This document shows positions 4,040-33,418 of a DNA stretch of 59,109 nucleotides, piece by piece; the stretch's first letter is position 1, and each line of letters begins with the position of its first letter. The position numbers were made by a program, and so were the translations under genes. Under the pieces are notes generated by a model. It did no database searches. It was given only the letters and a program-made list of their open reading frames with translations, and was not told the origin of the DNA. The DNA comes from a virus. The stretch is taken from the IMG/VR virus record IMGVR_UViG_3300029542_000004, positions 1 through 59,109 of that record, one strand, 5' to 3'.

Positions 4040-4366
4040 TTACTTCACATCCTTGCCAAATCGCTTCCATAGTTCAGACAGCTTTTCCCATCCATACATT
4101 GAAACAAATGCTACAACAAATCCTGCCATAATTGCCGCAAGAATCATATACCACAGTATTGTCATCTGAATATACTGCATATAAGCAACAAATGCCGCTA
4201 CAGTAATACCGATTGACAGTACAAATACTACAATATCTGTAGGCACTTTATTGAATACTCCAATGCCCTTAATTACCTGTGTAATTACAGACACCATAAA
4301 AGCTAATGCCCCGATGATTGCTAACACGATTGTCATGTTTGTGATTAATACCTGCATAATTTCCAT
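4040..4366 (-). CDS. Holin (multi-TM, phiLC3 / holin_4-like)
   Basis: Three hydrophobic helices and a charged C-terminal tail (WEKLSELWKRFGKDVK). The start is moved to the ATG at 4366, behind AAGGAGG. Confidence 0.65.
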   Translation of the reverse strand: MEIMQVLITNMTIVLAIIGALAFMVSVITQVIKGIGVFNKVPTDIVVFVLSIGITVAAFVAYMQYIQMTILWYMILAAIMAGFVVAFVSMYGWEKLSELWKRFGKDVK

Positions 4367-5453: not shown

Positions 5454-6545
5454 TTAATCCTCCTTAACTTTGAGAACCATAACGCTATCCATACCCTCGA
5501 ATGTAGGTAATCCAATCATAGATACGATACAGTGAGTATTGATAGGATGATTTGTAGCGTATGTGTATACAGATACACCTGTCTCAACAAGTGAGAGGTT
5601 TCCGTCTGTGATACTTCCGCTTCTTTCCTCGGGTGTCTTACCAAATGTGTAATCGCCAAGGAATACTCCGGCAGACTGTGCAGATACAATGCCTGTTGGT
5701 ACAAAGTACTGTGTCTGTCCTGTCTCGTCAACATAGAGCTTATCGTATACTTCAATCTCGATACCATATCCTCTAAGGTATTCAGTAACCTGTCCTTGCT
5801 GTAATCTGATACCGCCATTGTAGGCAGTAATACCAAGTACCTGTTTCTTTGTGTCCTCTGCCTTAAGCACCATCTCCCAAGTCTCTGTATTCATGGTGAA
5901 ACGTGTAAGTGAGTAGCCTGTAGCCTTTGCAAAATCTCTACGAGCTGTGATAAGGTCATCGAGTGGTGCACATGTGGTAGGCTTATCCCATGCACTTGTG
6001 CCAGTAATTGACTTAAAGTGCTTTTCCTTATGCTCTGTGCCATTGTCGGCTGTGTAATCAACGACATAGTTCTTATCGCCAAGCACAACCTTTACTTTTG
6101 GTACACCATCTGTAGGTGCAAGTAACTGCCAAATCTGTCTCTCCGGTACAACTAATGCACCCTCAATTAACATCATTGGTTTCTTTGAGATTTCACGTAA
6201 TACGTTATTGGCAAGGCTTGAGTTCTCAGAAGTTCTGTAATTGTCGTACTCCTGTTCCTCTTTCTCTGTTACCATATATCCCTCGCGATAAAATGGCATT
6301 GAGTTCTGAATGTCAGAGAAACCTCCAACATCTCTTAACTCTGCCTGTGCGTCAAAGTTTGAAGCTTTGAGTGATACCGGCAGTCCGTTCTTACCCTTGA
6401 TAAATCTAAGGTCGAGTGAGTCCTGTTTACGTGTTCCGAATTTCTGTCTGCCAAGATAAGGGGCAGTTCCTAATGTCTTTTTGTAGTTATCCCACATTAC
6501 ACCGAGACTTCTCGCTGTAAATGCTTCTGCTAATGGTAATGCCAT
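5454..6545 (-). CDS. Major capsid protein
   Basis: 363-aa ORF after the scaffold and decoration-like genes. Size and position fit a lambda gpE-like capsid family. Confidence 0.75.
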   Translation of the reverse strand: MALPLAEAFTARSLGVMWDNYKKTLGTAPYLGRQKFGTRKQDSLDLRFIKGKNGLPVSLKASNFDAQAELRDVGGFSDIQNSMPFYREGYMVTEKEEQEYDNYRTSENSSLANNVLREISKKPMMLIEGALVVPERQIWQLLAPTDGVPKVKVVLGDKNYVVDYTADNGTEHKEKHFKSITGTSAWDKPTTCAPLDDLITARRDFAKATGYSLTRFTMNTETWEMVLKAEDTKKQVLGITAYNGGIRLQQGQVTEYLRGYGIEIEVYDKLYVDETGQTQYFVPTGIVSAQSAGVFLGDYTFGKTPEERSGSITDGNLSLVETGVSVYTYATNHPINTHCIVSMIGLPTFEGMDSVMVLKVKED

Positions 6546-16637: not shown

Positions 16638-16663
16638 AGAGACATCTCCTTATTTTTTGATAA

Positions 16664-16743
16664 TCGAATAGACAGGAATCGAACTTGTGACTCCCTCCGC
16701 TACCATTACCGCAGTGGGTTTCTCCCAACTGAACTACTATCCG
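16664..16743 (-). ncRNA. tRNA-like element with an aberrant anticodon arm
   Basis: Acceptor CGGATAG/CTATTCG, D-loop AGTTGGGA and T-arm ACAAG-TTCGATT-CCTGT are present. The anticodon region is 7 nt too long and does not form a standard 5-bp stem with a 7-nt loop. Confidence 0.35.
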
Positions 16744-17122
16744 AAAAGGCAAGATTCACTCCATCAAAAGGTTTCCCAAAACACATTACAGAATTTTGAA
16801 AGTGTCTTGCCCATTGCTTTCGGTCGCGCGTACCTACTAGCAACTTGTTTTTGTGTATTTTCTTTTATCTTCCGAAACCGCTCTATTGCGGACCGGCCAG
16901 CGTTACGCAACCGCTATTCAAGATATAACAGCTCACACTAAACCGACATATGATTGATGTGGTGTGGATTTGAACCACACATAAGCCGTGCACTGCTCAC
17001 ATTGGAGGGAATTGAACCCATAGGTAAAATCAACCATGCGTTTTTACTCGTTTACCTGTCTCCTGCCCATCTGTCACTTACCCTTTTGTATACACATCAA
17101 CAGTCAGCGTCATGCTGACTAA

Positions 17123-17205
17123 CGCCGACATCGTGACTCGAACACGAACAACATTTCTGTTGGATAGCTTAGCAAGCTACTGAAATACCTTTATCCCATA
17201 TCGGC
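17123..17205 (-). tRNA. tRNA-Ser (anticodon GCU)
   Basis: Acceptor GCCGATA/TGTCGGC, anticodon arm GTAGC-TTGCTAA-GCTAT, long variable arm CAACA-GAAA-TGTTG and T-arm TCGTG-TTCGAGT-CACGA. Confidence 0.75.
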
Positions 17206-17363
17206 AAGCGAGTGTTTTTTTACTTGGTTTCCACTCACCCAAGGATTTTTTAGTCAGCCGCAAGCGGCTCAATCCAGTTCCCTACGCTAGGTTTATCTAG
17301 AATATTAACTAGCGTCTGCATTTCTCTAATAAACGCCCTCGGAGTGTACTGGCAATATCACCA

Positions 17364-17438
17364 ATCGGCAAGGTTGGGAATCGAACCCACGACAAATCAG
17401 CTAATAGCCGACTGCTCTACCATTGAGCTACATGCCGA
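17364..17438 (-). tRNA. tRNA-like gene with apparent anticodon AUU and an irregular acceptor stem
   Basis: D-arm GCTC-AATGGTA-GAGC, anticodon arm GTCGG-CTATTAG-CTGAT and T-arm GTGGG-TTCGATT-CCCAA. The acceptor is TCGGCATG/CTTGCCGA, with a T-T mismatch and one extra base. Confidence 0.45.
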
Positions 17439-17681
17439 TAAACAAAACTAACCTAATAGCTCTGTTTAAGCAAAAAATACGAAAAATTTCATTAAAGGGA
17501 AGAACCCTTAATTGCAGAAATGATACTATGTAACAGTTAGTCGGCACCTTTAGGCAGGGACATGCGTTATGATTTTCTGTTGTTTATTGGTAGAGTGTTG
17601 CCCGGCTGTTTACCCGACTTGTATCTCACGCAACACCTTGTAGCTGCTACCATATCTTACGCTATATTTTATTTCTGCAAG

Positions 17682-17754
17682 CTGGCTTGATAGGACTCGA
17701 ACCTACAACTACTTGATTAACAGTCAAGTGTTCTACCTGTTGAACTACAAGCCA
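17682..17754 (-). tRNA. tRNA-Asn (anticodon GUU)
   Basis: Acceptor TGGCTTG/CAAGCCA, D-arm GTTC-AACAGGTA-GAAC, anticodon arm CTTGA-CTGTTAA-TCAAG and T-arm GTAGG-TTCGAGT-CCTAT. Confidence 0.85.
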
Positions 17755-18105
17755 ATAATGAGGGTGAAGTCTAAGGAGTGGCAACACCCTCCGGAGATAT
17801 AAATTTGTATGTGCTGTAGGAAAAGAACTAGGAAACCTACAGCAAAGGACATGTGAGGGATTGCACCCCACCTAAGACTCACTGATTTGAGTTGCCCTAG
17901 TTTAACAATTAATTAAAGGGGGTATATATGTCTACTCTGCCTATTACAGATGTCTTTACGACAGGTTGGTTTTCACGCTCGTGTATTGTGGGATTATACA
18001 CGATTAAACCCTCACGAGCCTTGTGACGGCTCTTAACAGCTTTCCGCTATGAGGGCGAAAGGAACTACTAAGTCCAATGTCGGGGGAACCAAGTAAAACC
18101 CCGAA

Positions 18106-18178
18106 CAGGGCATGTTGGATTTGAACCAACGAAATGCGGGAATCAAAATCCCGTGCCTTACCGCTTGGCGAATGCCCT
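18106..18178 (-). tRNA. tRNA-Gln (anticodon UUG)
   Basis: Acceptor AGGGCAT/ATGCCCT, D-arm GCC-AAGCGGTAA-GGC, anticodon arm CGGGA-TTTTGAT-TCCCG and T-arm GTTGG-TTCAAAT-CCAAC. Confidence 0.85.
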
Positions 18179-18180
18179 AT

Positions 18181-20029: not shown

Positions 20030-20225
20030 CCTTAATATATATTTGTCAAATAGATTTTAAAATATTACTGGCTATATATTAAGCTAAATATATTTAATCA
20101 AGTATTATATATTTATATATTATATATATAATATTATATTTTCTTGTTTAATATTAAATAAATAAAAAATAAAGGGTTAATATAATATTATACTCTTCTA
20201 TAAAACCGTTAGGTTTTATTAATAT
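20030..20225. other. Extremely AT-rich tract; candidate DNA-unwinding element
   Basis: Long runs of TATATA and ATTA with almost no G or C, directly abutting the iteron block. Confidence 0.4.
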
Positions 20226-20230
20226 ATATA

Positions 20231-20311
20231 CTTACCTAACCTTACCTTACCTATACTACGGATACAGATTGTATACAGACCTGTATACATCATGTATACA
20301 TTTTGGATACA
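20231..20311. repeat. Origin-type iteron block, copy B (intergenic)
   Basis: CTTACCT repeats followed by five (G/T)GTATACA-type iterons. Their ATACA cores start at 20262, 20273, 20285, 20296 and 20307, a spacing of 11-12 nt. The block is homologous to 37571-37660. Confidence 0.55.
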
Positions 20312-21974: not shown

Positions 21975-22069
21975 CATAGCCGAAACGCTCCACCATGGAG
22001 CGCCCACCGCGGGGCGGTCGCCCGGCTCTGATGATGGCAGACCACAACGAAGAAAGCGAGGTTTTGAAC

Positions 22070-22294
22070 ATGAAAAAATATATTATGGTCGTAACGGATG
22101 AACAGATAAAGAGAAGCAAGGCACGCAGAAAAGCTGTCGAATCATTGGAGCATAACCCAATGTGTTACAACTGCAAGAGTTTCGGCAAGTCTTGCAATGG
22201 TTCAACAAATAAAATATATAGCGGATGTATCTATAAAGAGGTTGACGAATCGAAACCGTCTATATATGCACAGATTGCGGAACAAGTGAAATAG
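22070..22294 (+). CDS. Cys-rich hypothetical protein
   Basis: MKKYIMVV... with CYNCKSFGKSCNG...GC. The start is at the ATG after GAGG. Confidence 0.45.
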   Translation: MKKYIMVVTDEQIKRSKARRKAVESLEHNPMCYNCKSFGKSCNGSTNKIYSGCIYKEVDESKPSIYAQIAEQVK

Positions 22295-22381
22295 TCGAAA
22301 CAGCGGAATTTCCACCGTCTGCAGGAATTGCCCCACCTGCACCGATGAGACAGGGCGCGCAAAGAAAGGACGGTTGATTAT

Positions 22382-22657
22382 ATGACAAAAGCTGAACTAC
22401 TGAAAGAATTTGACAAACTGCAAAACGAAAAAGAAATACGCATTGAGGGCATACACTGCAATAGTAATAAAAGTACAATAAAAAATGCTATTGAGTGCCT
22501 AAAATGCCCGGATGAACTGTTAGAGAAATACTTAATGGTTGTAAGTCTCAAATATGAAAATATCGGGCGCACAATTGCAGAAAATGGAGACTTTAAGCGC
22601 CACTCTTTCAACCGGCTTTATGTATTTAATACAGCTAGACAGATTTTAGCAAATTAG
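22382..22657 (+). CDS. Hypothetical protein
   Basis: ORF in the plus-strand island. Confidence 0.45.
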   Translation: MTKAELLKEFDKLQNEKEIRIEGIHCNSNKSTIKNAIECLKCPDELLEKYLMVVSLKYENIGRTIAENGDFKRHSFNRLYVFNTARQILAN

Positions 22658-22677
22658 CATATCGGAGAGGACACAGC

Positions 22678-22770
22678 ATGAGAGATTTTATCGAGCTTTT
22701 AAAGGCTTTCGGGCTTTTCGTGTCATGCCTTGTTATTGGGTATGGCGGTTTGTTTTTATTTTTTTATTAG
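22678..22770 (+). CDS. 30-aa hydrophobic peptide (putative)
   Basis: Hand-translated as MRDFIELLKAFGLFVSCLVIGYGGLFLFFY. RBS GGAGAGG. Confidence 0.3.
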   Translation: MRDFIELLKAFGLFVSCLVIGYGGLFLFFY

Positions 22771-22783
22771 AGAGGTGGAGAAA

Positions 22784-22993
22784 ATGAAATACAATGAACC
22801 ATTAACAGAAGAATATTACGCAGAGCAAAAACGACTTTGGGACGAAATGAACAGTAGAAATAAAATTAACAATGCGTCAGTATTAACGAACGAGCAAAGG
22901 TTTGGAGTTCAAAATCCAATATTATCAAAAGAAGCAAGTTATTTTTTAGCATTAGGAGTAGCAAGGATTATAATTGATAAATTAGCAGAATAA
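22784..22993 (+). CDS. Hypothetical protein
   Basis: The start is at MKYNEPL, behind GAGGTGGAG. Confidence 0.45.
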   Translation: MKYNEPLTEEYYAEQKRLWDEMNSRNKINNASVLTNEQRFGVQNPILSKEASYFLALGVARIIIDKLAE

Positions 22994-23012
22994 GAGGATA
23001 TGCAACGTGAAT

Positions 23013-23033
23013 TATTATAATTCACGAGCTAAT
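23013..23033 (+). other. Perfect 9-bp hairpin
   Basis: CGTGAATTA-TTA-TAATTCACG, directly after the stop of 22784-22993. Confidence 0.5.
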
Positions 23034-23034
23034 A

Positions 23035-23094
23035 GCGATACTAATTAACATGGTGTATTTTAGCCGGTTCGAGTCCGGCTATTAGCTTTATATA
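23035..23094 (+). ncRNA. D-armless tRNA-like minihelix
   Basis: 7-bp acceptor GCTAATA/TATTAGC and a canonical T-arm GCCGG-TTCGAGT-CCGGC. Only 28 nt lie between them, forming the stem GATAC/GTATT with a 13-nt loop. Confidence 0.35.
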
Positions 23095-23399
23095 TAAGGC
23101 TTTTAAGGCCTTGTATTAATTAATTTAATATTTTTCATAGGTGCTTTTATATGGCTTTACGGCTGTATATATTGTACTCCGTCCGCGCGTCCGGTAAATA
23201 ATCGCGTCAAGAGGTCTTATAAATGCCTTTATATTTATATCAGGCTCAAGAGGTGCAACGCCTGAAAAAATAATTGTGCGCCCTTATAGGTGCTTTGCGT
23301 TATACACCTAATAAAAACAGATTAACGCACGCATGAACCGCGAGAAGGCCAAAAAGTAACATGTAAACCATGTACTAAAACAGAAAAGAGGGTTAATGA

Positions 23400-23669
23400 A
23401 TGGTCAACGAGCTAAAAAGCCTTGATGCTGTAGAACGTGAAATAAGAGCGCGCTACAATGGAAAATATACGAGCGCGCCGGAATATCAGGCAAGCGAGCG
23501 CGCCACACGTAAAGCAATAACGGACATTTTTAGAACTGTCGCAGAGTCGGGCACGTGTGACGATATTACCGCGCTTATTAGTGGCAAGGAATACCGCCGG
23601 ACGGCTTTCTCCAATTATCTACAGCATAAAAACTATATAAGCCCAATAATTAAGGCTTGTTATAGATAG
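23400..23669 (+). CDS. Hypothetical protein
   Basis: ORF with RBS AGAGGG. Locally richer in GC. Confidence 0.45.
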   Translation: MVNELKSLDAVEREIRARYNGKYTSAPEYQASERATRKAITDIFRTVAESGTCDDITALISGKEYRRTAFSNYLQHKNYISPIIKACYR

Positions 23670-23679
23670 GGGGTGTATT

Positions 23680-23934
23680 ATGTCTAATTATGAATACTTG
23701 GGGAAAAAAGAAATATATAAGCGAGTTCAGGCGCTAGGCTATGAAGTATCGAAAATAAGCGATTTTAATTATATCAAGTATGACTGCATAGAGTGGATGG
23801 AGTCGCACGAGTTAAAAATAACAGTTCAAAGATCCGGTGAATGGTTGCAAGTTGTCGAAAAGCGTGCGCACGTTCACCCGGTTACGCTTTTTTGCGACTA
23901 TCAAGCCGGGAAATATATCACGCGTTACCACTAG
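23680..23934 (+). CDS. Hypothetical protein
   Basis: ORF 10 nt after the previous stop. Confidence 0.45.
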   Translation: MSNYEYLGKKEIYKRVQALGYEVSKISDFNYIKYDCIEWMESHELKITVQRSGEWLQVVEKRAHVHPVTLFCDYQAGKYITRYH

Positions 23935-23955
23935 GGATATCTTATATCCCTTTTT
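23934..23955 (+). terminator. Intrinsic terminator of the plus-strand island
   Basis: GGGATAT-CTT-ATATCCC followed by TTTTT. Confidence 0.7.
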
Positions 23956-24080
23956 GCCGTGCCAAAAATCAAGTGCGCAGCCGTTGGAGCTGTCGCAAGT
24001 TGTCCGGCTATAAGTCCGGGTGCTGTCGTACATTGACAAATTAACAAAAATATTCTATGATTTTATGATATACACATTTA

Positions 24081-28044: not shown

Positions 28045-28321
28045 TTACTACACACTTTTTGGGGTGGTTACTACACAGTTACTACACACTTTTTGTATTA
28101 AAATACATTAAAATACATAGAATTTTATATTTTTTACGATTTTACGAAAACTCCGCAGACCCTTTATTTTCCTAGGATTGCGCCATTATTTACGAAATCG
28201 TATGGCACTCCTTGATATACATAGTAGTTAAGCCAGTTTTAGTACAAAAATGCCCTACGAGCGTTGGTTTTTCAACATTCTGTAAATTGAGAGTGTGTAC
28301 TACTACACACTTGCTACACAC
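28045..28321. repeat. attP region with arm-type repeats (T)TACTACACA
   Basis: Direct copies at 28045-54, 28068-77 and 28079-88, and again at 28301-10 and 28311-21, plus an inverted GTGTGTA at 28293-99. They flank an AT-rich core next to the int stop. Confidence 0.45.
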
Positions 28322-29501
28322 ATTTTCTTCTATATTCTATGATTTTGTTGTCGGTGCTAACGATTTTTTCAATGTCAGCAAACGACTTTTCGGGTGTAAC
28401 ATGTGTATACAAGTCCATTGTCATTTTCAGTGTTGCATGACCCAAATATGATTGAACGACTTTCGGCTCTATTCCTGACTCAAAACATCTTGTCGCAAAC
28501 GTATGTCTAAATGTGTGACCGCTAAAAAATGGAAATTCATTGTCACTGCTTCTTGTGTCATTTATCCGTCTTACAACCGAACGTATAGAGTCGCTATATA
28601 TAACCGAATTAATCGGTGTATTGAACCTTGTAACAAACAAATATTCGTTCTGCTCTTTGGGTCTGCGTGCTGAAACTATCTTTTTAAGCTCAAATTGTTT
28701 CGTCAGATATTCCCTGCACACACTATTAATTGGTACGTGTCGGTAACTCTGTTTGGTTTTTGGTGGCTCAACATGAAATGTCTTGCCTTTATCTTCGAGG
28801 TATTTCTGATACACAAGTGTCTTATTAACATCAATATATCCCTCGTCCATATGTATATCTGCAATCGTGAGCGCAAACAGTTCTCCTGGGCGCAAGCCTG
28901 TATTAACTGCCACATTATACATGTTGTCGTAAAAAGTGCCTTTGCACGCTTCAAAAAATTCGCTCTGTTGCTCTACCGTCAATGCAAATGCATTAACTTC
29001 CTTGTCTGCCCTCAACTTTACACCTTTCGCTGGATTCTTAATCATCAGGTCATCTTCCATAGCTCTACTAAACATGTCATTTAAAATAACCTTGATTTTG
29101 CTCTGCCTCTCATACTTATAATTATCGTCAGAAGCTTTGTCGATAAGTAACTGCACATCTGACTTGCGAATAGATGTTATTTCGTGGTTTCCTAGGTATG
29201 GTGAGATGTTCTTCTTATATATATGTGTGTACTCCCTAATGGTATTGGGGCGCACTCTTTTTTTCTTGTATACGCTCATCCACCTGTCAAACCACACATC
29301 AAGAGTAATGCTGTCTCTAACACTTGTGAATTGTTGATTGTCGGTCACTGCTTTGCTAAGCTCCTTTCGCAGTTCCGACAACTTGCTATTGTAGATTGTC
29401 TTGTTCTTGCCGAACCTATCTTTGTATCTGCCCTGATAAAGTCCGTCCTTGCGCTGGGTTATTCCGACTCCCAGCTCTTTTCCTCTCAAATCCTTTCCCA
29501 T
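28314..29501 (-). CDS. int: Tyrosine integrase
   Basis: C-terminus HTFRHTFATRC...LGHATLKMTMDLYTHV carries the R-H-R-Y catalytic signature. The N-terminus has a SAM-like domain. Confidence 0.9.
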   Translation of the reverse strand: MGKDLRGKELGVGITQRKDGLYQGRYKDRFGKNKTIYNSKLSELRKELSKAVTDNQQFTSVRDSITLDVWFDRWMSVYKKKRVRPNTIREYTHIYKKNISPYLGNHEITSIRKSDVQLLIDKASDDNYKYERQSKIKVILNDMFSRAMEDDLMIKNPAKGVKLRADKEVNAFALTVEQQSEFFEACKGTFYDNMYNVAVNTGLRPGELFALTIADIHMDEGYIDVNKTLVYQKYLEDKGKTFHVEPPKTKQSYRHVPINSVCREYLTKQFELKKIVSARRPKEQNEYLFVTRFNTPINSVIYSDSIRSVVRRINDTRSSDNEFPFFSGHTFRHTFATRCFESGIEPKVVQSYLGHATLKMTMDLYTHVTPEKSFADIEKIVSTDNKIIEYRRKCV

Positions 29502-29585: not shown

Positions 29586-29987
29586 CTATATGCTATCTGT
29601 CTTTTCGAGATATTTCTCAAACTCCTTGCGCTTGACTAATCGCTTGCCTCTTCCAACAAAAAGTACAAAAGGGCATGAGGGATTATTAAGCATTTCATTG
29701 ATTCTGTTAATTCCGATATTACTGTATTCCACAGCCTCATCAATTGTCAGCGTTACTTTTTCCCATATTGGCACTTTGTTAATCATTGCCTGACTCCTTT
29801 CTATCTTTTCTTTAATGTCTGCCACTCTCCGGGAAGTGGTTGTTTTTGAAATTAATAATCTCTGCGATACCTCTTCAAGGCTTTTGTCAGCAACTAGCAA
29901 TTTAAAAACTTCCGCTTCTTCATCGGTGAAATTGGCATTTTTCATAATTTCTTCAAGTTCCGGCTTAGTAAGTTTTGAAAACTTCAT
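29586..29987 (-). CDS. Excisionase-like / dual-HTH recombination directionality factor candidate
   Basis: N-terminal sigma-r4/LuxR-like HTH (EEVSQRLLISKTTTSRRV) and a C-terminal excisionase-type HTH (LTIDEAVEYSNIGINRINEM). Adjacent to int. Confidence 0.5.
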   Translation of the reverse strand: MKFSKLTKPELEEIMKNANFTDEEAEVFKLLVADKSLEEVSQRLLISKTTTSRRVADIKEKIERSQAMINKVPIWEKVTLTIDEAVEYSNIGINRINEMLNNPSCPFVLFVGRGKRLVKRKEFEKYLEKTDSI

Positions 29988-30122
29988 AAGCCTATCTCCT
30001 ATTCTTCGGTTTTGTTTGCACTGTGTATACAAGTATTCGAGTATCGGCATGAACTGTTACACGGCTTGTTGCCCTTGTATACACATTGTCTTTCAATTGG
30101 CTCTATATCACTTATAGTTCTG

Positions 30123-31286
30123 CTATTCATCTGCGCTCCCATCTCCTTGCTTGATATTCAAATTCTTAAACATGGCACACATAACATCTACAACTATACT
30201 GTTTCCAAACTGCTTGTATAACTGCGTGTTACTGTTTACTGCTGCCATTTTGGATATGCCCTCGTCTGATACTCCCATAAGCCTGCCACATTCTCTCGGT
30301 GTTAGCTTTCTGATGCGATATTGTGTAGCAATATGGTTATTTGCATATCCGTGTGTGCCAGCTACAAGATTAGCTGATATGCCGTTATCAGAAATAACCG
30401 TACCACATTGGGAACCATTGCTTGATATTTGACCGACTTTTTGGATATTATTTTCAAGCAATAAATTATCCTTTTGTACTGTTGTCAGCGTATTAGATAT
30501 ATTATCTTGCCTAGGTTCTAATTCTGTCATATTATGTCTGCTCTCCTGTACCTGTCCGCTTTCATATGCTTTTCTTATTTGTTTGCCGTATTCCGTGCGC
30601 TTTGGTGTTAATACCTGACTTTCCATAACAAGGTTATCTTTCTGCACACTTGTCAGACAATTACTGGTTCCTTGCGTATTCACTTCTAACCTCTGTTCTG
30701 TCGGACTACCAACGGACCTGTCAGACGGATTATCAGGATTTCTGCCACGCATAGCAACTATGCGCATATTGTCTTTATGACTACCTATGCCTTTATAATA
30801 TCGTGATGTCACTGTGCTTGCAGTAGGTGTATTAATGTCACATATTTCCGCATTATCTAAGCTGTCTAAGTGTCCGTTAGGCATTTTATCTAATTTGCAT
30901 GGAATTTGCTCTTCAAGAATTTTCGGCTCTTGATTACCGCCTTGCATTGTACTCAATGTTGGACTACACCCCCTCGTATCATAAATTCTGCCAGTTTGAG
31001 GATTTCTGAAATTCTTTTCCTCGGCTATGTTGCCTATCTGTACCACTTCCATAACACTTCTCGGTTTCTTATATTCTCTTGCCGTAATTGATGGCATTAT
31101 GTCCGTGTAAGTTCTCCATTTTCCATTTTCAAGCCCTCTTTGACTACCGTCTAAGATTATTTGTTCCATAAATACTACTCCTAAATCGTGTTTTTCAGCT
31201 TTTACACATCGGGAAATCCCCCCCTCAATAATGCCTTTTTGAAATCTGTCTGAAACTTCTGTATATATGCTTCCTAATACTTCCAT
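30123..31286 (-). CDS. C5 DNA methyltransferase, C-terminal fragment (multiple TRD-like blocks plus motifs IX-X)
   Basis: RKLTPRECGRLMG and GNSIVV at the end. Repeated TRD-like blocks: SITAREYKK, SPTLSTMQGG, TSRYYKG, LTSVQKDN, LTTVQKDN. Confidence 0.75.
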   Translation of the reverse strand: MEVLGSIYTEVSDRFQKGIIEGGISRCVKAEKHDLGVVFMEQIILDGSQRGLENGKWRTYTDIMPSITAREYKKPRSVMEVVQIGNIAEEKNFRNPQTGRIYDTRGCSPTLSTMQGGNQEPKILEEQIPCKLDKMPNGHLDSLDNAEICDINTPTASTVTSRYYKGIGSHKDNMRIVAMRGRNPDNPSDRSVGSPTEQRLEVNTQGTSNCLTSVQKDNLVMESQVLTPKRTEYGKQIRKAYESGQVQESRHNMTELEPRQDNISNTLTTVQKDNLLLENNIQKVGQISSNGSQCGTVISDNGISANLVAGTHGYANNHIATQYRIRKLTPRECGRLMGVSDEGISKMAAVNSNTQLYKQFGNSIVVDVMCAMFKNLNIKQGDGSADE

Positions 31287-31498
31287 TCAATCACTCCATT
31301 CATAAATTGATTCCCAAAACCTTTATAATCCCTCGCCATAAGAGTTGTTGCAATATCAATCTGCTTTTCAATCTGTGTTGCTTGATTGCTTAACAACAAG
31401 GTTTCCGTCTGACCGCAAGTTTGATATTCCGCAGTCGTATCTTGTCTTGATACAGTTTGCGACTTCTCTCTGTTGTGGTTTATTGATTGTTCCATCAA
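31274..31498 (-). CDS. C5 methyltransferase internal fragment (one TRD-like block), out of frame with both neighbours
   Basis: IATTLMARDYKGFGNQ block. This frame is -1 relative to ORF 31495-32352, and ORF 30123-31286 is -1 relative to this fragment. Confidence 0.5.
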   Translation of the reverse strand: MMEQSINHNREKSQTVSRQDTTAEYQTCGQTETLLLSNQATQIEKQIDIATTLMARDYKGFGNQFMNGVIEWKY

Positions 31499-32352
31499 CG
31501 CAAGTCTGCTCTGCTCTGCTCTGCTCTGCTAGGGATTGTATCTGGCAATGTTCCGTTGTCAATAAGTGTCTGAATAAGTTTCTGTGCCTTTTCATTGTTA
31601 ATGTAGTATTTCTCGTCCACATTATCCTCTAAATAGTCCTTTAACCGCTTTGTGAGTGGTATAGGGTTAGGAAACTTGTAATTATATTCTCCTAAGAACG
31701 AGAACATAAAACATCTTTCCCTATTCTGTGCTACACCATAGTTTTTAGCGTTCAAGTCTTGATAGTAATTTGTGTAACCCAGGCTTTCAAGGAAATCTAG
31801 CCATTTTCTAAAGTCGGGCATATTATCCTGACTATGTACTTGTGGCACGTTCTCCATGAACAAAATCTGTGGCAATTCTCCGTTGCTATCTCTGATTTCT
31901 GTTAGTATTCTCTCAACTTCCCACAGTAGGCCGCTTCTTGTACCACTGCCCTTAGACATTCCGGCTTGTTTTCCGGCAACTGATAAATCCGTACAAGGGA
32001 ATGAGTAAGTAAGTAAGTAAGTGAATGCATTTGTGTCGCAGATATTCAAACCTTCTGCATGAACCTTTGTTATATCCATTGTAGGAAAATCTGTGCCATG
32101 CACTGCGTTATAGCTTGCTATGGCATACTTATCAAACTCCACAACTCTGTAATGCTCAAATTTAGCACCTATTCTCTTTAGTGCCATTGCCTGACTTCCG
32201 TAGCCAGCAAATAATTCTATCAAGCGGATAGGCTTTGTAATACTAATCGGTTCTCTTGTGAAGTCAAATAAAGACATTTGATTATCGCAAGAATAATTTT
32301 CAAAATTCATTTTCTCTTGCCAAAAGGAAACCTTGGTTTTATGTCGCGACAA
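31495..32352 (-). CDS. C5 DNA methyltransferase, N-terminal catalytic fragment (motifs I-VIII)
   Basis: LFAGYGS (I), FPCTDLS (IV), FMENVPQ (VI) and QNRERCF (VIII). The start codon is uncertain (TTG at 32352 or ATG at 32310). Confidence 0.8.
   Translation of the reverse strand: MSRHKTKVSFWQEKMNFENYSCDNQMSLFDFTREPISITKPIRLIELFAGYGSQAMALKRIGAKFEHYRVVEFDKYAIASYNAVHGTDFPTMDITKVHAEGLNICDTNAFTYLLTYSFPCTDLSVAGKQAGMSKGSGTRSGLLWEVERILTEIRDSNGELPQILFMENVPQVHSQDNMPDFRKWLDFLESLGYTNYYQDLNAKNYGVAQNRERCFMFSFLGEYNYKFPNPIPLTKRLKDYLEDNVDEKYYINNEKAQKLIQTLIDNGTLPDTIPSRAEQSRADLR
31506..31530 (-). repeat. Pentanucleotide repeat (AGCAG)x5 at the MTase frame junction
   Basis: Plus strand CTGCT x5, read directly. 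It encodes SRAEQSRA and is followed 8 codons later by the stop. Confidence 0.9.
32004..32022 (-). repeat. Tetranucleotide repeat (ACTT)x4.75 inside the MTase N-terminal fragment
   Basis: Plus strand AGTAAGTAAGTAAGTAAGT. It encodes TYLLTYS, just upstream of motif IV. Confidence 0.85.
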
Positions 32353-33034: not shown

Positions 33035-33418
33035 TTATTCCTCACTTTCCAATAACCCTGCATTGTCAAAAATGTTGCCGATAACTTCATATTCAGTATC
33101 ATATTCAAGCCTGTGCTTATAATATTTTTCGCTAGGAATTGTACATATAATTTCAAAGTCTCTAAATGTTATTAGCACATTCACCTTGCTATTATTTATT
33201 TTTACAATATCATTCTCCCAAATCAACTTGCCGTTCTTGTCTTTTAAGCCTGTGCATTGGCAGATTGTGGATGTGTCTATTTCAATAGCATATAAATCAG
33301 ATGCATAACTTGGAACTATATAGTATTTTTCTTTTCCTGTATGTCCATATCTTATAATGTAGCCAACAACCCATTCTCCGTTATCAGTCCTCCTTGCCTT
33401 GTACAAATATCTGTCCAT
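33035..33418 (-). CDS. YopX-family protein (copy 1)
   Basis: MDRYLYKARR..GEWVVGY...CQCTGLKDKNGKLIWENDIV. Paralogous to 40735-41109. Confidence 0.65.
   Translation of the reverse strand: MDRYLYKARRTDNGEWVVGYIIRYGHTGKEKYYIVPSYASDLYAIEIDTSTICQCTGLKDKNGKLIWENDIVKINNSKVNVLITFRDFEIICTIPSEKYYKHRLEYDTEYEVIGNIFDNAGLLESEE

Follow-up and report, generated by a model that had tools for sequence, protein, structure and literature searches.

The subject of this analysis is a cytosine-5 (C5) DNA methyltransferase locus carried by IMG/VR record IMGVR_UViG_3300029542_000004, a stretch of 59,109 nucleotides that is referred to hereafter as the window. The window is an apparently complete temperate phage genome of ~59 kb with a GC content of ~0.39 and with nearly all of its genes on the minus strand. 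The locus, identified from the list of open reading frames (ORFs) and a PF00145 profile search, lies in pieces at positions 30123-32352. It probably encodes an anti-restriction C5 methyltransferase of a temperate Lachnospiraceae phage that is split between two polypeptides, carries many target recognition domains (TRDs), and is gated by contingency tracts. As judged by comparison with related loci, nearly all of the reading-frame disruptions map to three or four tracts of simple sequence, and these tracts act as contingency loci in which changes in length far outpace point substitution. All features of the locus given below are on the minus strand.

The comparisons are based on an IMG/VR search that yielded 259 relatives, with 80 loci retained, mostly on contigs of 50-60 kb. 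Three sets were employed, namely 61 loci for the length of the ACTT tract, 64 unique sequences for the openness of reading frames, and 71 distinct complete loci for frame states.

Results and Discussion

A methyltransferase fold divided between two reading frames

The locus had been described previously, from the letters of the window alone, as a C5 methyltransferase in three pieces. This original prediction placed ORFs at 31495-32352, 31274-31498 (74 amino acids), and 30123-31286, each in a different frame, and all three are present precisely there on the minus strand. The first, referred to here as the N-subunit ORF, encodes 285 amino acids from a TTG start at 32352, with an alternative ATG at 32310. 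It matches PF00145 positions 2-215 with an E-value of 2e-47, aligns with residues 12-212 of M.HhaI, and contains motifs I-VIII (FAGYG, PCTDLS, ENV, and QNRER) together with a conserved VDEKYYINNEKAQKLI segment. The C-subunit ORF, at 30123-31286, encodes 387 amino acids, with seven TRD modules followed by motifs IX-X (30126-30323), and ends in RKLTPRECGRLMG and GNSIVV. It matches PF00145 positions 173-322 (E-value 9e-12), and its residues 289-375, the last 87 to be aligned, correspond to M.HhaI residues 233-317. The profile and M.HhaI alignments thus bear out the assignment of motifs I-VIII to the one ORF and of motifs IX-X to the other.

Together the two ORFs span M.HhaI residues 12-317 (aligned at 12-212 and 233-317). 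Motifs I (FxGxG), IV (PC), VI (ENV), VIII (QxRxR), IX (RxLTPxE), and X (GNS/A) occur in the canonical order, divided between the two ORFs. By these alignments they jointly constitute one full C5 methyltransferase fold whose variable region is very long, and the two-ORF product is predicted to be active as a C5 methyltransferase. In 78 of the 80 IMG/VR relatives there is no single ORF extending from the N core to motif X, and most are visibly composed of N and C ORFs. Intact relatives with a single ORF (L026, L057, L085, and L094) are uncommon.

The layout is shared by more than 90 related Lachnospiraceae phage and prophage loci, and the N-subunit ORF falls, at 90% identity, in a cluster of 921 distinct sequences, among which all three of the tail types described below are represented. 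The exact 285-residue N protein is found on 17 public contigs. Labels of the metagenome-assembled genomes (MAGs) that contain relatives indicate Lachnospiraceae/Roseburia hosts, and some copies reside on contigs of 141-265 kb. Members of the phage family are found on long, presumably bacterial contigs in L118 (107,905 bp), L115 (265,413 bp), L117 (149,344 bp), and L084 (140,909 bp); these copies, presumably integrated prophages, and their host flanks could serve to identify the host. Several short MAG contigs labelled Bacteroidaceae/Paludibacteraceae also carry the Lachnospiraceae-type phage gene, and these may be binning errors. A megablast search of the locus against 50,697 GenBank phages gave zero matches. 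With tblastn, only distant matches to GenBank phages were obtained, nearly all below 60% identity, and no close cultured relative was among them.

The junction between the frames

The second junction of the locus (31274-31297) had been taken for a break that would require the addition of one nucleotide for fusion. The arithmetic holds, but the junction is not a lesion. A Shine-Dalgarno (SD) sequence, GGAG, at 31294-31297 is followed, after a 7-nt spacer, by the C-subunit start codon, an ATG at 31284-31286, and the upstream frame, referred to as frame X, stops just past this ATG at a TAG (31274-31276), giving an ORF overlap of 13 nt. The spacing is typical for this phage, in which 20 of 33 genes have an SD sequence. 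In the relatives the junction motif, AATGGAGT[GA]ATTGAATGGAA, hardly varies, despite being followed by any of at least four different first modules. Because the overlap of stop and ATG is nearly invariant and the C-subunit ORF has its own ribosome-binding site, the locus looks like that of a two-subunit enzyme of the M.AquI type.

Relatives from Lachnospiraceae/Roseburia MAGs that are only 54-68% identical, and that have no repeat, are split likewise at GNGVIE[WC]; in these distant relatives TRDs are present on the N ORF of L089, L090, and L093 and absent from that of L087 and L088. The possibility of a split enzyme, raised in the original prediction, is thus favored by a junction whose stop, ATG, and SD sequence are kept even there, and the comparison identifies the split as a conserved design rather than decay. 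Two-polypeptide C5 enzymes occur naturally, as in M.AquI and M.EcoHK31I, and complementation by fragments is known for M.SssI, M.HhaI, M.BspRI, and M.BsuRI (PMC3404938). By analogy with these enzymes, the N and C proteins would be expected to assemble into one enzyme.

Conservation of the junction at the nucleotide level might also be expected if a single-chain enzyme were produced with no change in the DNA, by programmed frameshifting of the ribosome or by slippage during transcription, whether at this junction or at the repeats, and G-runs can indeed provoke polymerase slippage. Such recoding is considered very unlikely. The SD sequence and ATG fully account for the conserved bases, the lengths of the tracts in the DNA themselves vary between loci, and no slippery heptamer of the form X_XXY_YYZ was seen at the junction when the sequence was read by eye, an inspection that did not include a search for RNA structure.

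The AGCAG tract and two recognition domains in overlapping frames

The linker behind the N core contains an (AGCAG)x5 tract at 31506-31530 (SSR1, for simple-sequence repeat 1), which encodes SRAEQ in every frame and is stop-free. This tract, an (ACTT)x4.75 tract at 32004-32022 (SSR2), and a G7 run at 31218-31224 (SSR3) had all been reported, and Tandem Repeats Finder (TRF) and a scan for tracts place them at those positions. Within the whole 59-kb window, (AGCAG)x5 is the sole 5-nt repeat with three or more units, (ACTT)x4.75 is the sole 4-nt repeat with four or more units, and G7 is the longest G/C run. Since the extreme repeats of the window all fall inside this one 2.2-kb gene, they are not attributed to chance.

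The number of AGCAG units sets the frame in which translation leaves the linker. With the five units of the window, the N-subunit ORF ends at a TGA two codons beyond the repeat and its single trailing A ('...SRADLR', stop). Four or seven units lead into frame X and six or nine into a further frame, referred to as frame Y. That four or seven units fuse the first piece to the second, as had been worked out by hand, is correct. The DNA behind the repeat, however, encodes two TRDs rather than one. The previously overlooked TRD-Y (CVDGTINKPQQREVANCIKTRYDCGISN) lies at 31371-31502 in the third frame, where it overlaps the 'piece 2' of the original prediction, and would be joined to the N-subunit ORF by six units. 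With its stop codon it extends over 31368-31502 (CVDGTINKPQQREVANCIKTRYDCGISNLRSDGNLVVKQSSNTD) in the frame of the C-subunit ORF, and it is untranslated in the five-unit state. In frame X (31274-31504) the same DNA is read as a linker (~31371-31504), which is followed by TRD-X (TLMARDYKG; IATTLMARDYKGFGNQFMNGVIE) at ~31277-31370 and then by the TAG stop at the junction. The second piece is therefore TRD-like, as described, but it is the tail of an alternative N protein and not a separate piece.

Both frames are maintained in the relatives. In 63 of the 64 unique sequences frame Y runs for 39-48 codons before a stop, and in the other one it runs for 60; in 60 of the 64, frame X stays in register and free of stops all the way from the repeat to the junction. 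The remaining frame terminates two codons past the repeat in 63 of the 64. Read in its own frame, TRD-Y has a ratio of nonsynonymous to synonymous polymorphism (pN/pS) of 0.30 and TRD-X one of 0.41, as compared to 0.8-1.2 in the wrong frames, so that purifying selection is seen on TRD-Y in frame Y and on TRD-X in frame X. TRD-Y is fused in frame within the intact single-ORF enzymes L026 and L094, and TRD-X is a variable cassette of at least six types. The ATG of 'piece 2' is found in only 4 of the 64 sequences, and neither TRD-Y nor TRD-X has a conserved start codon, so that both must be translated through the repeat. Only 2.4% of synonymous recodings of the window's TRD-Y would leave frame X open, and for eleven divergent TRD-Y types the corresponding values are 2-14%, yet frame X is open in all eleven.

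Three further readings of the interruption were rejected. An intron or intein does not fit an intervening 200 nt that encode TRD-like sequence conserved as protein, reassignment of a stop codon does not fit pieces that occupy different frames, and a separate start for the second piece does not fit an ATG found in so few of the relatives.

A repeat is present at the homologous linker site in every relative, save for the distant repeat-less set. The tracts consist of (ACAG)n or (AGCAG)n with ~1 to ~19 units, L091 having the longest, (GACA)x19, and also include (AGCAA)x6 and, in a 62%-identity relative (L092), a perfect (GAACAGA)x12 as assembled. The unit length is 4, 5, or 7 nt, and never a multiple of three, and the codons are stop-free in all frames. 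The contig of L092, from a MAG labelled Treponema, ends within its repeat (5746-5830), on which the assembly broke. Among loci that share the 15- and 10-nt flanks of the window's tract, there are 4-11 units. Copy number is unequal between loci whose 800-nt flanks are 100% identical; in L019 and L020 the tracts differ by 20 nt, or five units, across 1600 nt of identical flank, and ~18 additional pairs of loci with flanks of at least 99% identity also differ. The 71 distinct loci are distributed over frame Y (30), frame X (24), and the stop frame (17), and every combination with the other switches occurs. The proposed repeat switch thus gains support from a copy number that varies at identical flanks with all frames populated, but it has three outcomes and is not a simple on/off device. 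These data point to the AGCAG site as a hypermutable three-way switch that would provide TRD-Y, TRD-X, or neither.

It might be argued that the differences in tract length are artefacts of assembly or sequencing, given that homopolymers are error-prone, that the longest tracts approach the length of a read, and that one contig (L092) ends within its repeat. This is an exceedingly improbable explanation. The changes comprise whole 4- and 5-nt units in tracts of 20-60 nt from many independent assemblies, and for one sequencing run two assemblers agree on a G6 tract where another run gives G7.

A more substantial objection is that the tracts are hypermutable but the AGCAG/ACAG switch is functionally neutral, such that a short N protein suffices, the enzyme could do without the TRD-Y and TRD-X tails, and the spread over the three frames would reflect an absence of selection. 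The near-even frame states, the natural TRD-less N subunits of L087 and L088, and the tail-less allele of the window itself are all compatible with this view, as is the larger of M.AquI's two subunits, which contains motifs I-VIII and no more than a part of the variable region (PMC3404938). Neutral tails are nonetheless rather unlikely. Purifying selection on TRD-Y and TRD-X in their own frames, a frame X kept free of stops over TRD-Y far more often than recoding would allow, the production of both TRDs solely through the repeat, and the replacement of TRD-X by different cassettes all run counter to it.

Recognition modules and poly-G tracts of the C subunit

The C-subunit ORF contains modules A (31170-31286), B (31047-31169), C (30912-31046), D (30756-30911), E (30621-30755), F (30453-30620), and G (30324-30452), each of which ends in a TRD-like core. 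A chain of at least five TRD-like blocks had been recognized here, with six listed; there are seven modules, the first (ISRCVKAEKHDLGV) having been overlooked. With TRD-Y and TRD-X upstream, the total reaches nine. The relatives hold different subsets of modules in many combinations of presence and absence, drawn from at least 15 sequence types in the family, and the order is constant: N - Y - X - [A|K|R] - B - C - [D|H] - E - F - [I|J] - G - IX. For each of modules C, E, F, G, I, and R there is a relative in which it directly precedes motif IX.

Locus L119, whose C-subunit ORF is 97% identical to that of the window, is without exactly the 56 residues of module F, and the deletion is clean, between the LT[ST]VQKDN ends of modules E and F. 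The description of the locus as encoding a many-TRD enzyme is accordingly well founded. L119 has the same 285-residue N ORF, and its deletion site (4200-4219, against 30453-30620 of the window) separates regions of 98.9% identity upstream and 95.7% identity downstream; this drop in identity suggests recombination with another lineage at a module boundary. On the basis of the multispecific phage enzymes, a distinct target sequence is predicted for each TRD.

The G7 run at 31218-31224 (GAG GGG GGG, encoding 'EGG') is in frame, 21 codons into the C-subunit ORF. GGG accounts for 4.1% of the glycine codons in this phage. In the relatives this first poly-G tract, which lies 21-24 codons into the ORF and is present in two first modules unrelated to each other, has a length of G5 to G10. 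Another tract, ~+138 to +218 nt from the ATG, varies from G4 to G10 and corresponds to a G5 run of the window at 30969-30973 (YDTRGCSP, module C). When the C-subunit ORFs that are broken from the junction ATG are considered, 40 of 41 regain full length upon resizing of one or two G-runs alone. The second run has to be changed in 25 of the 41, by itself in 13 and together with the first in 12.

For the lineage of the window, G7/G6 is the sole change in tract length in public data. Contig L100 is 100% identical to the window, whereas L118, L120, and L121 have 0-2 mismatches over 3.5 kb but a G6 run, which ends the C-subunit ORF after 27 residues. G6 was reported by two assemblers for the same run (L118 and L121), and another run gave G7. 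The sequencing runs are ERR1190851 for G7 and ERR1190856 and ERR2017567 for G6. A possible internal restart is located at 31167-31181, with the SD sequence GGAG at 31178-31181, an 8-nt spacer, and an ATG at 31167-31169 (MEQIILDG), where module A gives way to module B. Public gene calls in the G6 variants contain a 348-residue ORF that starts exactly at this ATG, and G6 alleles may thus be translated from it.

This restart bears upon the suggestion that the locus is a plain on/off switch with one active configuration, for example frame X coupled to the C-subunit ORF at the junction, all other frames and the out-of-frame poly-G states being off. A frame-X stop that overlaps the ATG of the C-subunit ORF is a classic layout for translational coupling, and classical phasevarion Mod genes switch on and off. 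Still, a plain on/off device seems unlikely. The C-subunit ORF has its own SD sequence at a typical spacing, TRD-Y is conserved as protein in the frame that would be the off state, the intact enzymes L026 and L094 use TRD-Y in frame, and the gene calls in the G6 variants resume at an SD-ATG exactly on a module boundary.

The ACTT tract

The (ACTT)x4.75 tract encodes FTYLLTY just upstream of motif IV (FPCTDLS) and is in frame in the window. Its length is the same in 52 of the 61 relatives, is shorter by one unit in six and by two units in one, and is longer by one unit in two. Each of these whole-unit changes (9/61) breaks the N-subunit ORF ahead of motif IV. The perfect repeat is kept in lineages with differing flanks, which demands an improbable series of codon choices.

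Proposed mechanism and points that weigh against it

A scheme consistent with these observations is as follows. The N and C proteins would assemble into one enzyme in the manner of M.AquI alpha and beta. Slipped-strand mispairing at (AGCAG)n would set the tail of the catalytic subunit, namely TRD-Y, TRD-X by way of the overprinted linker, or none, and (ACTT)n would toggle that subunit on or off. The poly-G tracts would strip the leading TRD or TRDs from the C subunit, with a restart at the next SD-ATG, or would silence it wholly. The purpose may be bet-hedging against host restriction: because methylation shields a phage from Type II enzymes but exposes it to methyl-dependent restriction, a mixed population would be safer. 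In the allele of the window the N subunit is on but ends right behind the repeat, TRD-Y and TRD-X are silent, and the C subunit is on with seven TRDs. The full combinatorial form of the scheme, in which the repeat selects among TRD-Y, TRD-X, and none, the poly-G tracts drop individual leading TRDs, and the ACTT tract turns the enzyme off, is put forward tentatively, at somewhat less than even chances.

Several observations weigh against the scheme. The AGCAG tract has five units in all contigs found for the lineage of the window, by a search that needed the exact 285-residue protein and through which other counts could not be found, and the nearest relative with another count is merely ~90% identical. 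Variation at this site is thus established for sister lineages only. Moreover, since five units lie at the short end of the observed range, switching in the window is probably slow. Reversible switching within one population would have to be read from differences between assemblies. The frame-X linker over the overlap has a pN/pS of 0.88, and thus no amino-acid constraint, and it appears, from this ratio, to have been selected for openness only. An N-attached TRD would have to cooperate with motifs IX-X of the other subunit, and some of the poly-G differences could be sequencing errors. Finally, the C-subunit ORF is broken from the junction ATG in about half of the relatives, which could mean that the enzyme can be lost with little harm, and there are a few real lesions, namely a nonsense codon within TRD-X in L007 and a change of ATG to ACG, with loss of the start codon, in L066.

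The last two points, along with the presence of three frames within 2.2 kb, are also what would be seen in a decaying pseudogene that accumulates frameshifts, the simple decay against which comparison with related phage contigs had been proposed as the test. Decay is highly improbable. The breaks map to tracts, with those of the C-subunit ORF at G-runs in all but one of 41 cases and those of the N-subunit ORF in whole ACTT units, the pN/pS values are well below 1 in the coding frames, the SD sequence and ATG of the junction are nearly invariant, and the layout and the 921-member N cluster attest to wide conservation. Both decay and artefact are contradicted by the comparative sequence data, and a split, multi-TRD enzyme gated by contingency tracts continues to be the preferred interpretation.

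Relationship to known systems

The locus unites three known things, namely multispecific phage C5 enzymes, naturally split C5 enzymes, and repeat-driven phase variation. The C5 enzymes of the Bacillus phages (SPR, phi3T, rho11s, and SPbeta) are likewise phage-encoded, with one core and a linear array of TRDs between motifs VIII and IX. An SPbeta-like phage enzyme, a single ORF of 510 residues, is 28% identical to the N piece, including VDEKYY..KLI, and 31% identical to residues 156-376 of the C piece. By this alignment the enzyme described here is distantly related to the Bacillus phage multispecific methyltransferases. Those enzymes are single polypeptides with ~3-4 TRDs and are not known to contain repeat switches. 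Here, in contrast, there are up to nine modules, at least 15 sequence types, two ORFs, and tracts that gate parts of the protein.

M.EcoHK31I, too, makes use of an overlapping reading frame. As in the M.AquI type, motifs IX-X are found on the C protein together with what remains of the variable region (PMC3404938), with each ORF of the present locus having its own translation signals. M.AquI and M.EcoHK31I are bacterial, monospecific, and not controlled by repeats, and assembly of the subunits is proven for them whereas it is inferred here.

With the bacterial phase-variable methyltransferases (Type III mod and Type I hsd) the locus has in common intragenic repeats of 4-5 nt or homopolymers, near-identical strains that differ in them, and slipped-strand mispairing as the means by which the reading frame would be shifted. 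A poly-G tract in NgoAV hsdS alters specificity, and hpyAVIBM of H. pylori is a C5 enzyme. Bacterial phasevarions are chromosomal systems of host-adapted pathogens, mostly N6-adenine-specific, and of the on/off kind. The present locus, by contrast, belongs to a phage of gut commensals, has several independent tracts in one gene, and contains one tract that would choose between two TRDs in overlapping frames, or neither.

Contingency loci of phages have been described for homopolymers in T2/T4 (bioRxiv 10.1101/2025.10.21.683753) and for poly-G tracts in the receptor-binding genes of Campylobacter Fletchervirus. In these, as here, hypermutable repeats would diversify a phage population against host defenses. 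They are, however, homopolymeric on/off switches in glucosyltransferase, receptor-binding, or other genes, and neither a multi-unit repeat of 4, 5, or 7 nt nor a selector of methyltransferase specificity has been described for either. A full-text literature search turned up no account of a split phage C5 methyltransferase that is switched by a repeat or has many TRDs, and none of a repeat that chooses between TRDs in overlapping frames.

Genome context

The methyltransferase is the final gene ahead of xis and int; a Tn916-Xis-like gene lies at 29586-30050 and an integrase at 28314-29501. Given this adjacency, expression of the methyltransferase in lysogens is conceivable. A few small ORFs upstream of the methyltransferase is a YopX-domain gene (33035-33418, minus strand).

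Elsewhere in the window, five phage tRNA genes (Leu-TAA, Ser-GCT, Asn-ATT, Asn-GTT, and Gln-TTG) are clustered on the minus strand at 16663-18179. The ATT anticodon is unusual for Asn, so that the call may be wrong or the gene a degenerate copy. The segment at 20100-20311 is AT-rich, within a 2-kb interval of GC content 0.31, has no ORF of 70 residues or more, and contains the short repeats (TA)n, TAAA x5, CTTAC x4.4, and a unit of 11 nt x4.5; an origin or a regulatory region may lie here. Positive GC and AT skew is confined to the segment at 22000-24000, which contains small plus-strand ORFs and looks divergently transcribed within an otherwise minus-strand genome, perhaps as a lysogeny switch.

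Implications

Contingency loci in phages have been claimed only recently, and as homopolymers alone; in the locus described here multi-unit repeats are under evident selection in a counter-defense gene. The family amounts to hundreds of variants from the gut metagenomes of humans and animals. With at least 15 types of TRD cassette, clean gains and losses of single modules, and both split and fused forms, it provides a natural test system for the way in which multispecific C5 enzymes use many TRDs with a single catalytic core. Genes of this kind will routinely be annotated as pseudogenes, and such switching could mislead attempts to link phages to hosts by methylation in metagenomes of the gut. 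If the three-frame reading of the AGCAG site is true, it would represent a new way of varying the specificity of a Type II-like methyltransferase. If the combinatorial switch is true, one phage genotype would give rise to dozens of heritable and reversible methylation repertoires, and the locus would be a phage-borne analogue of a phasevarion that hedges between Type II and methyl-dependent restriction.

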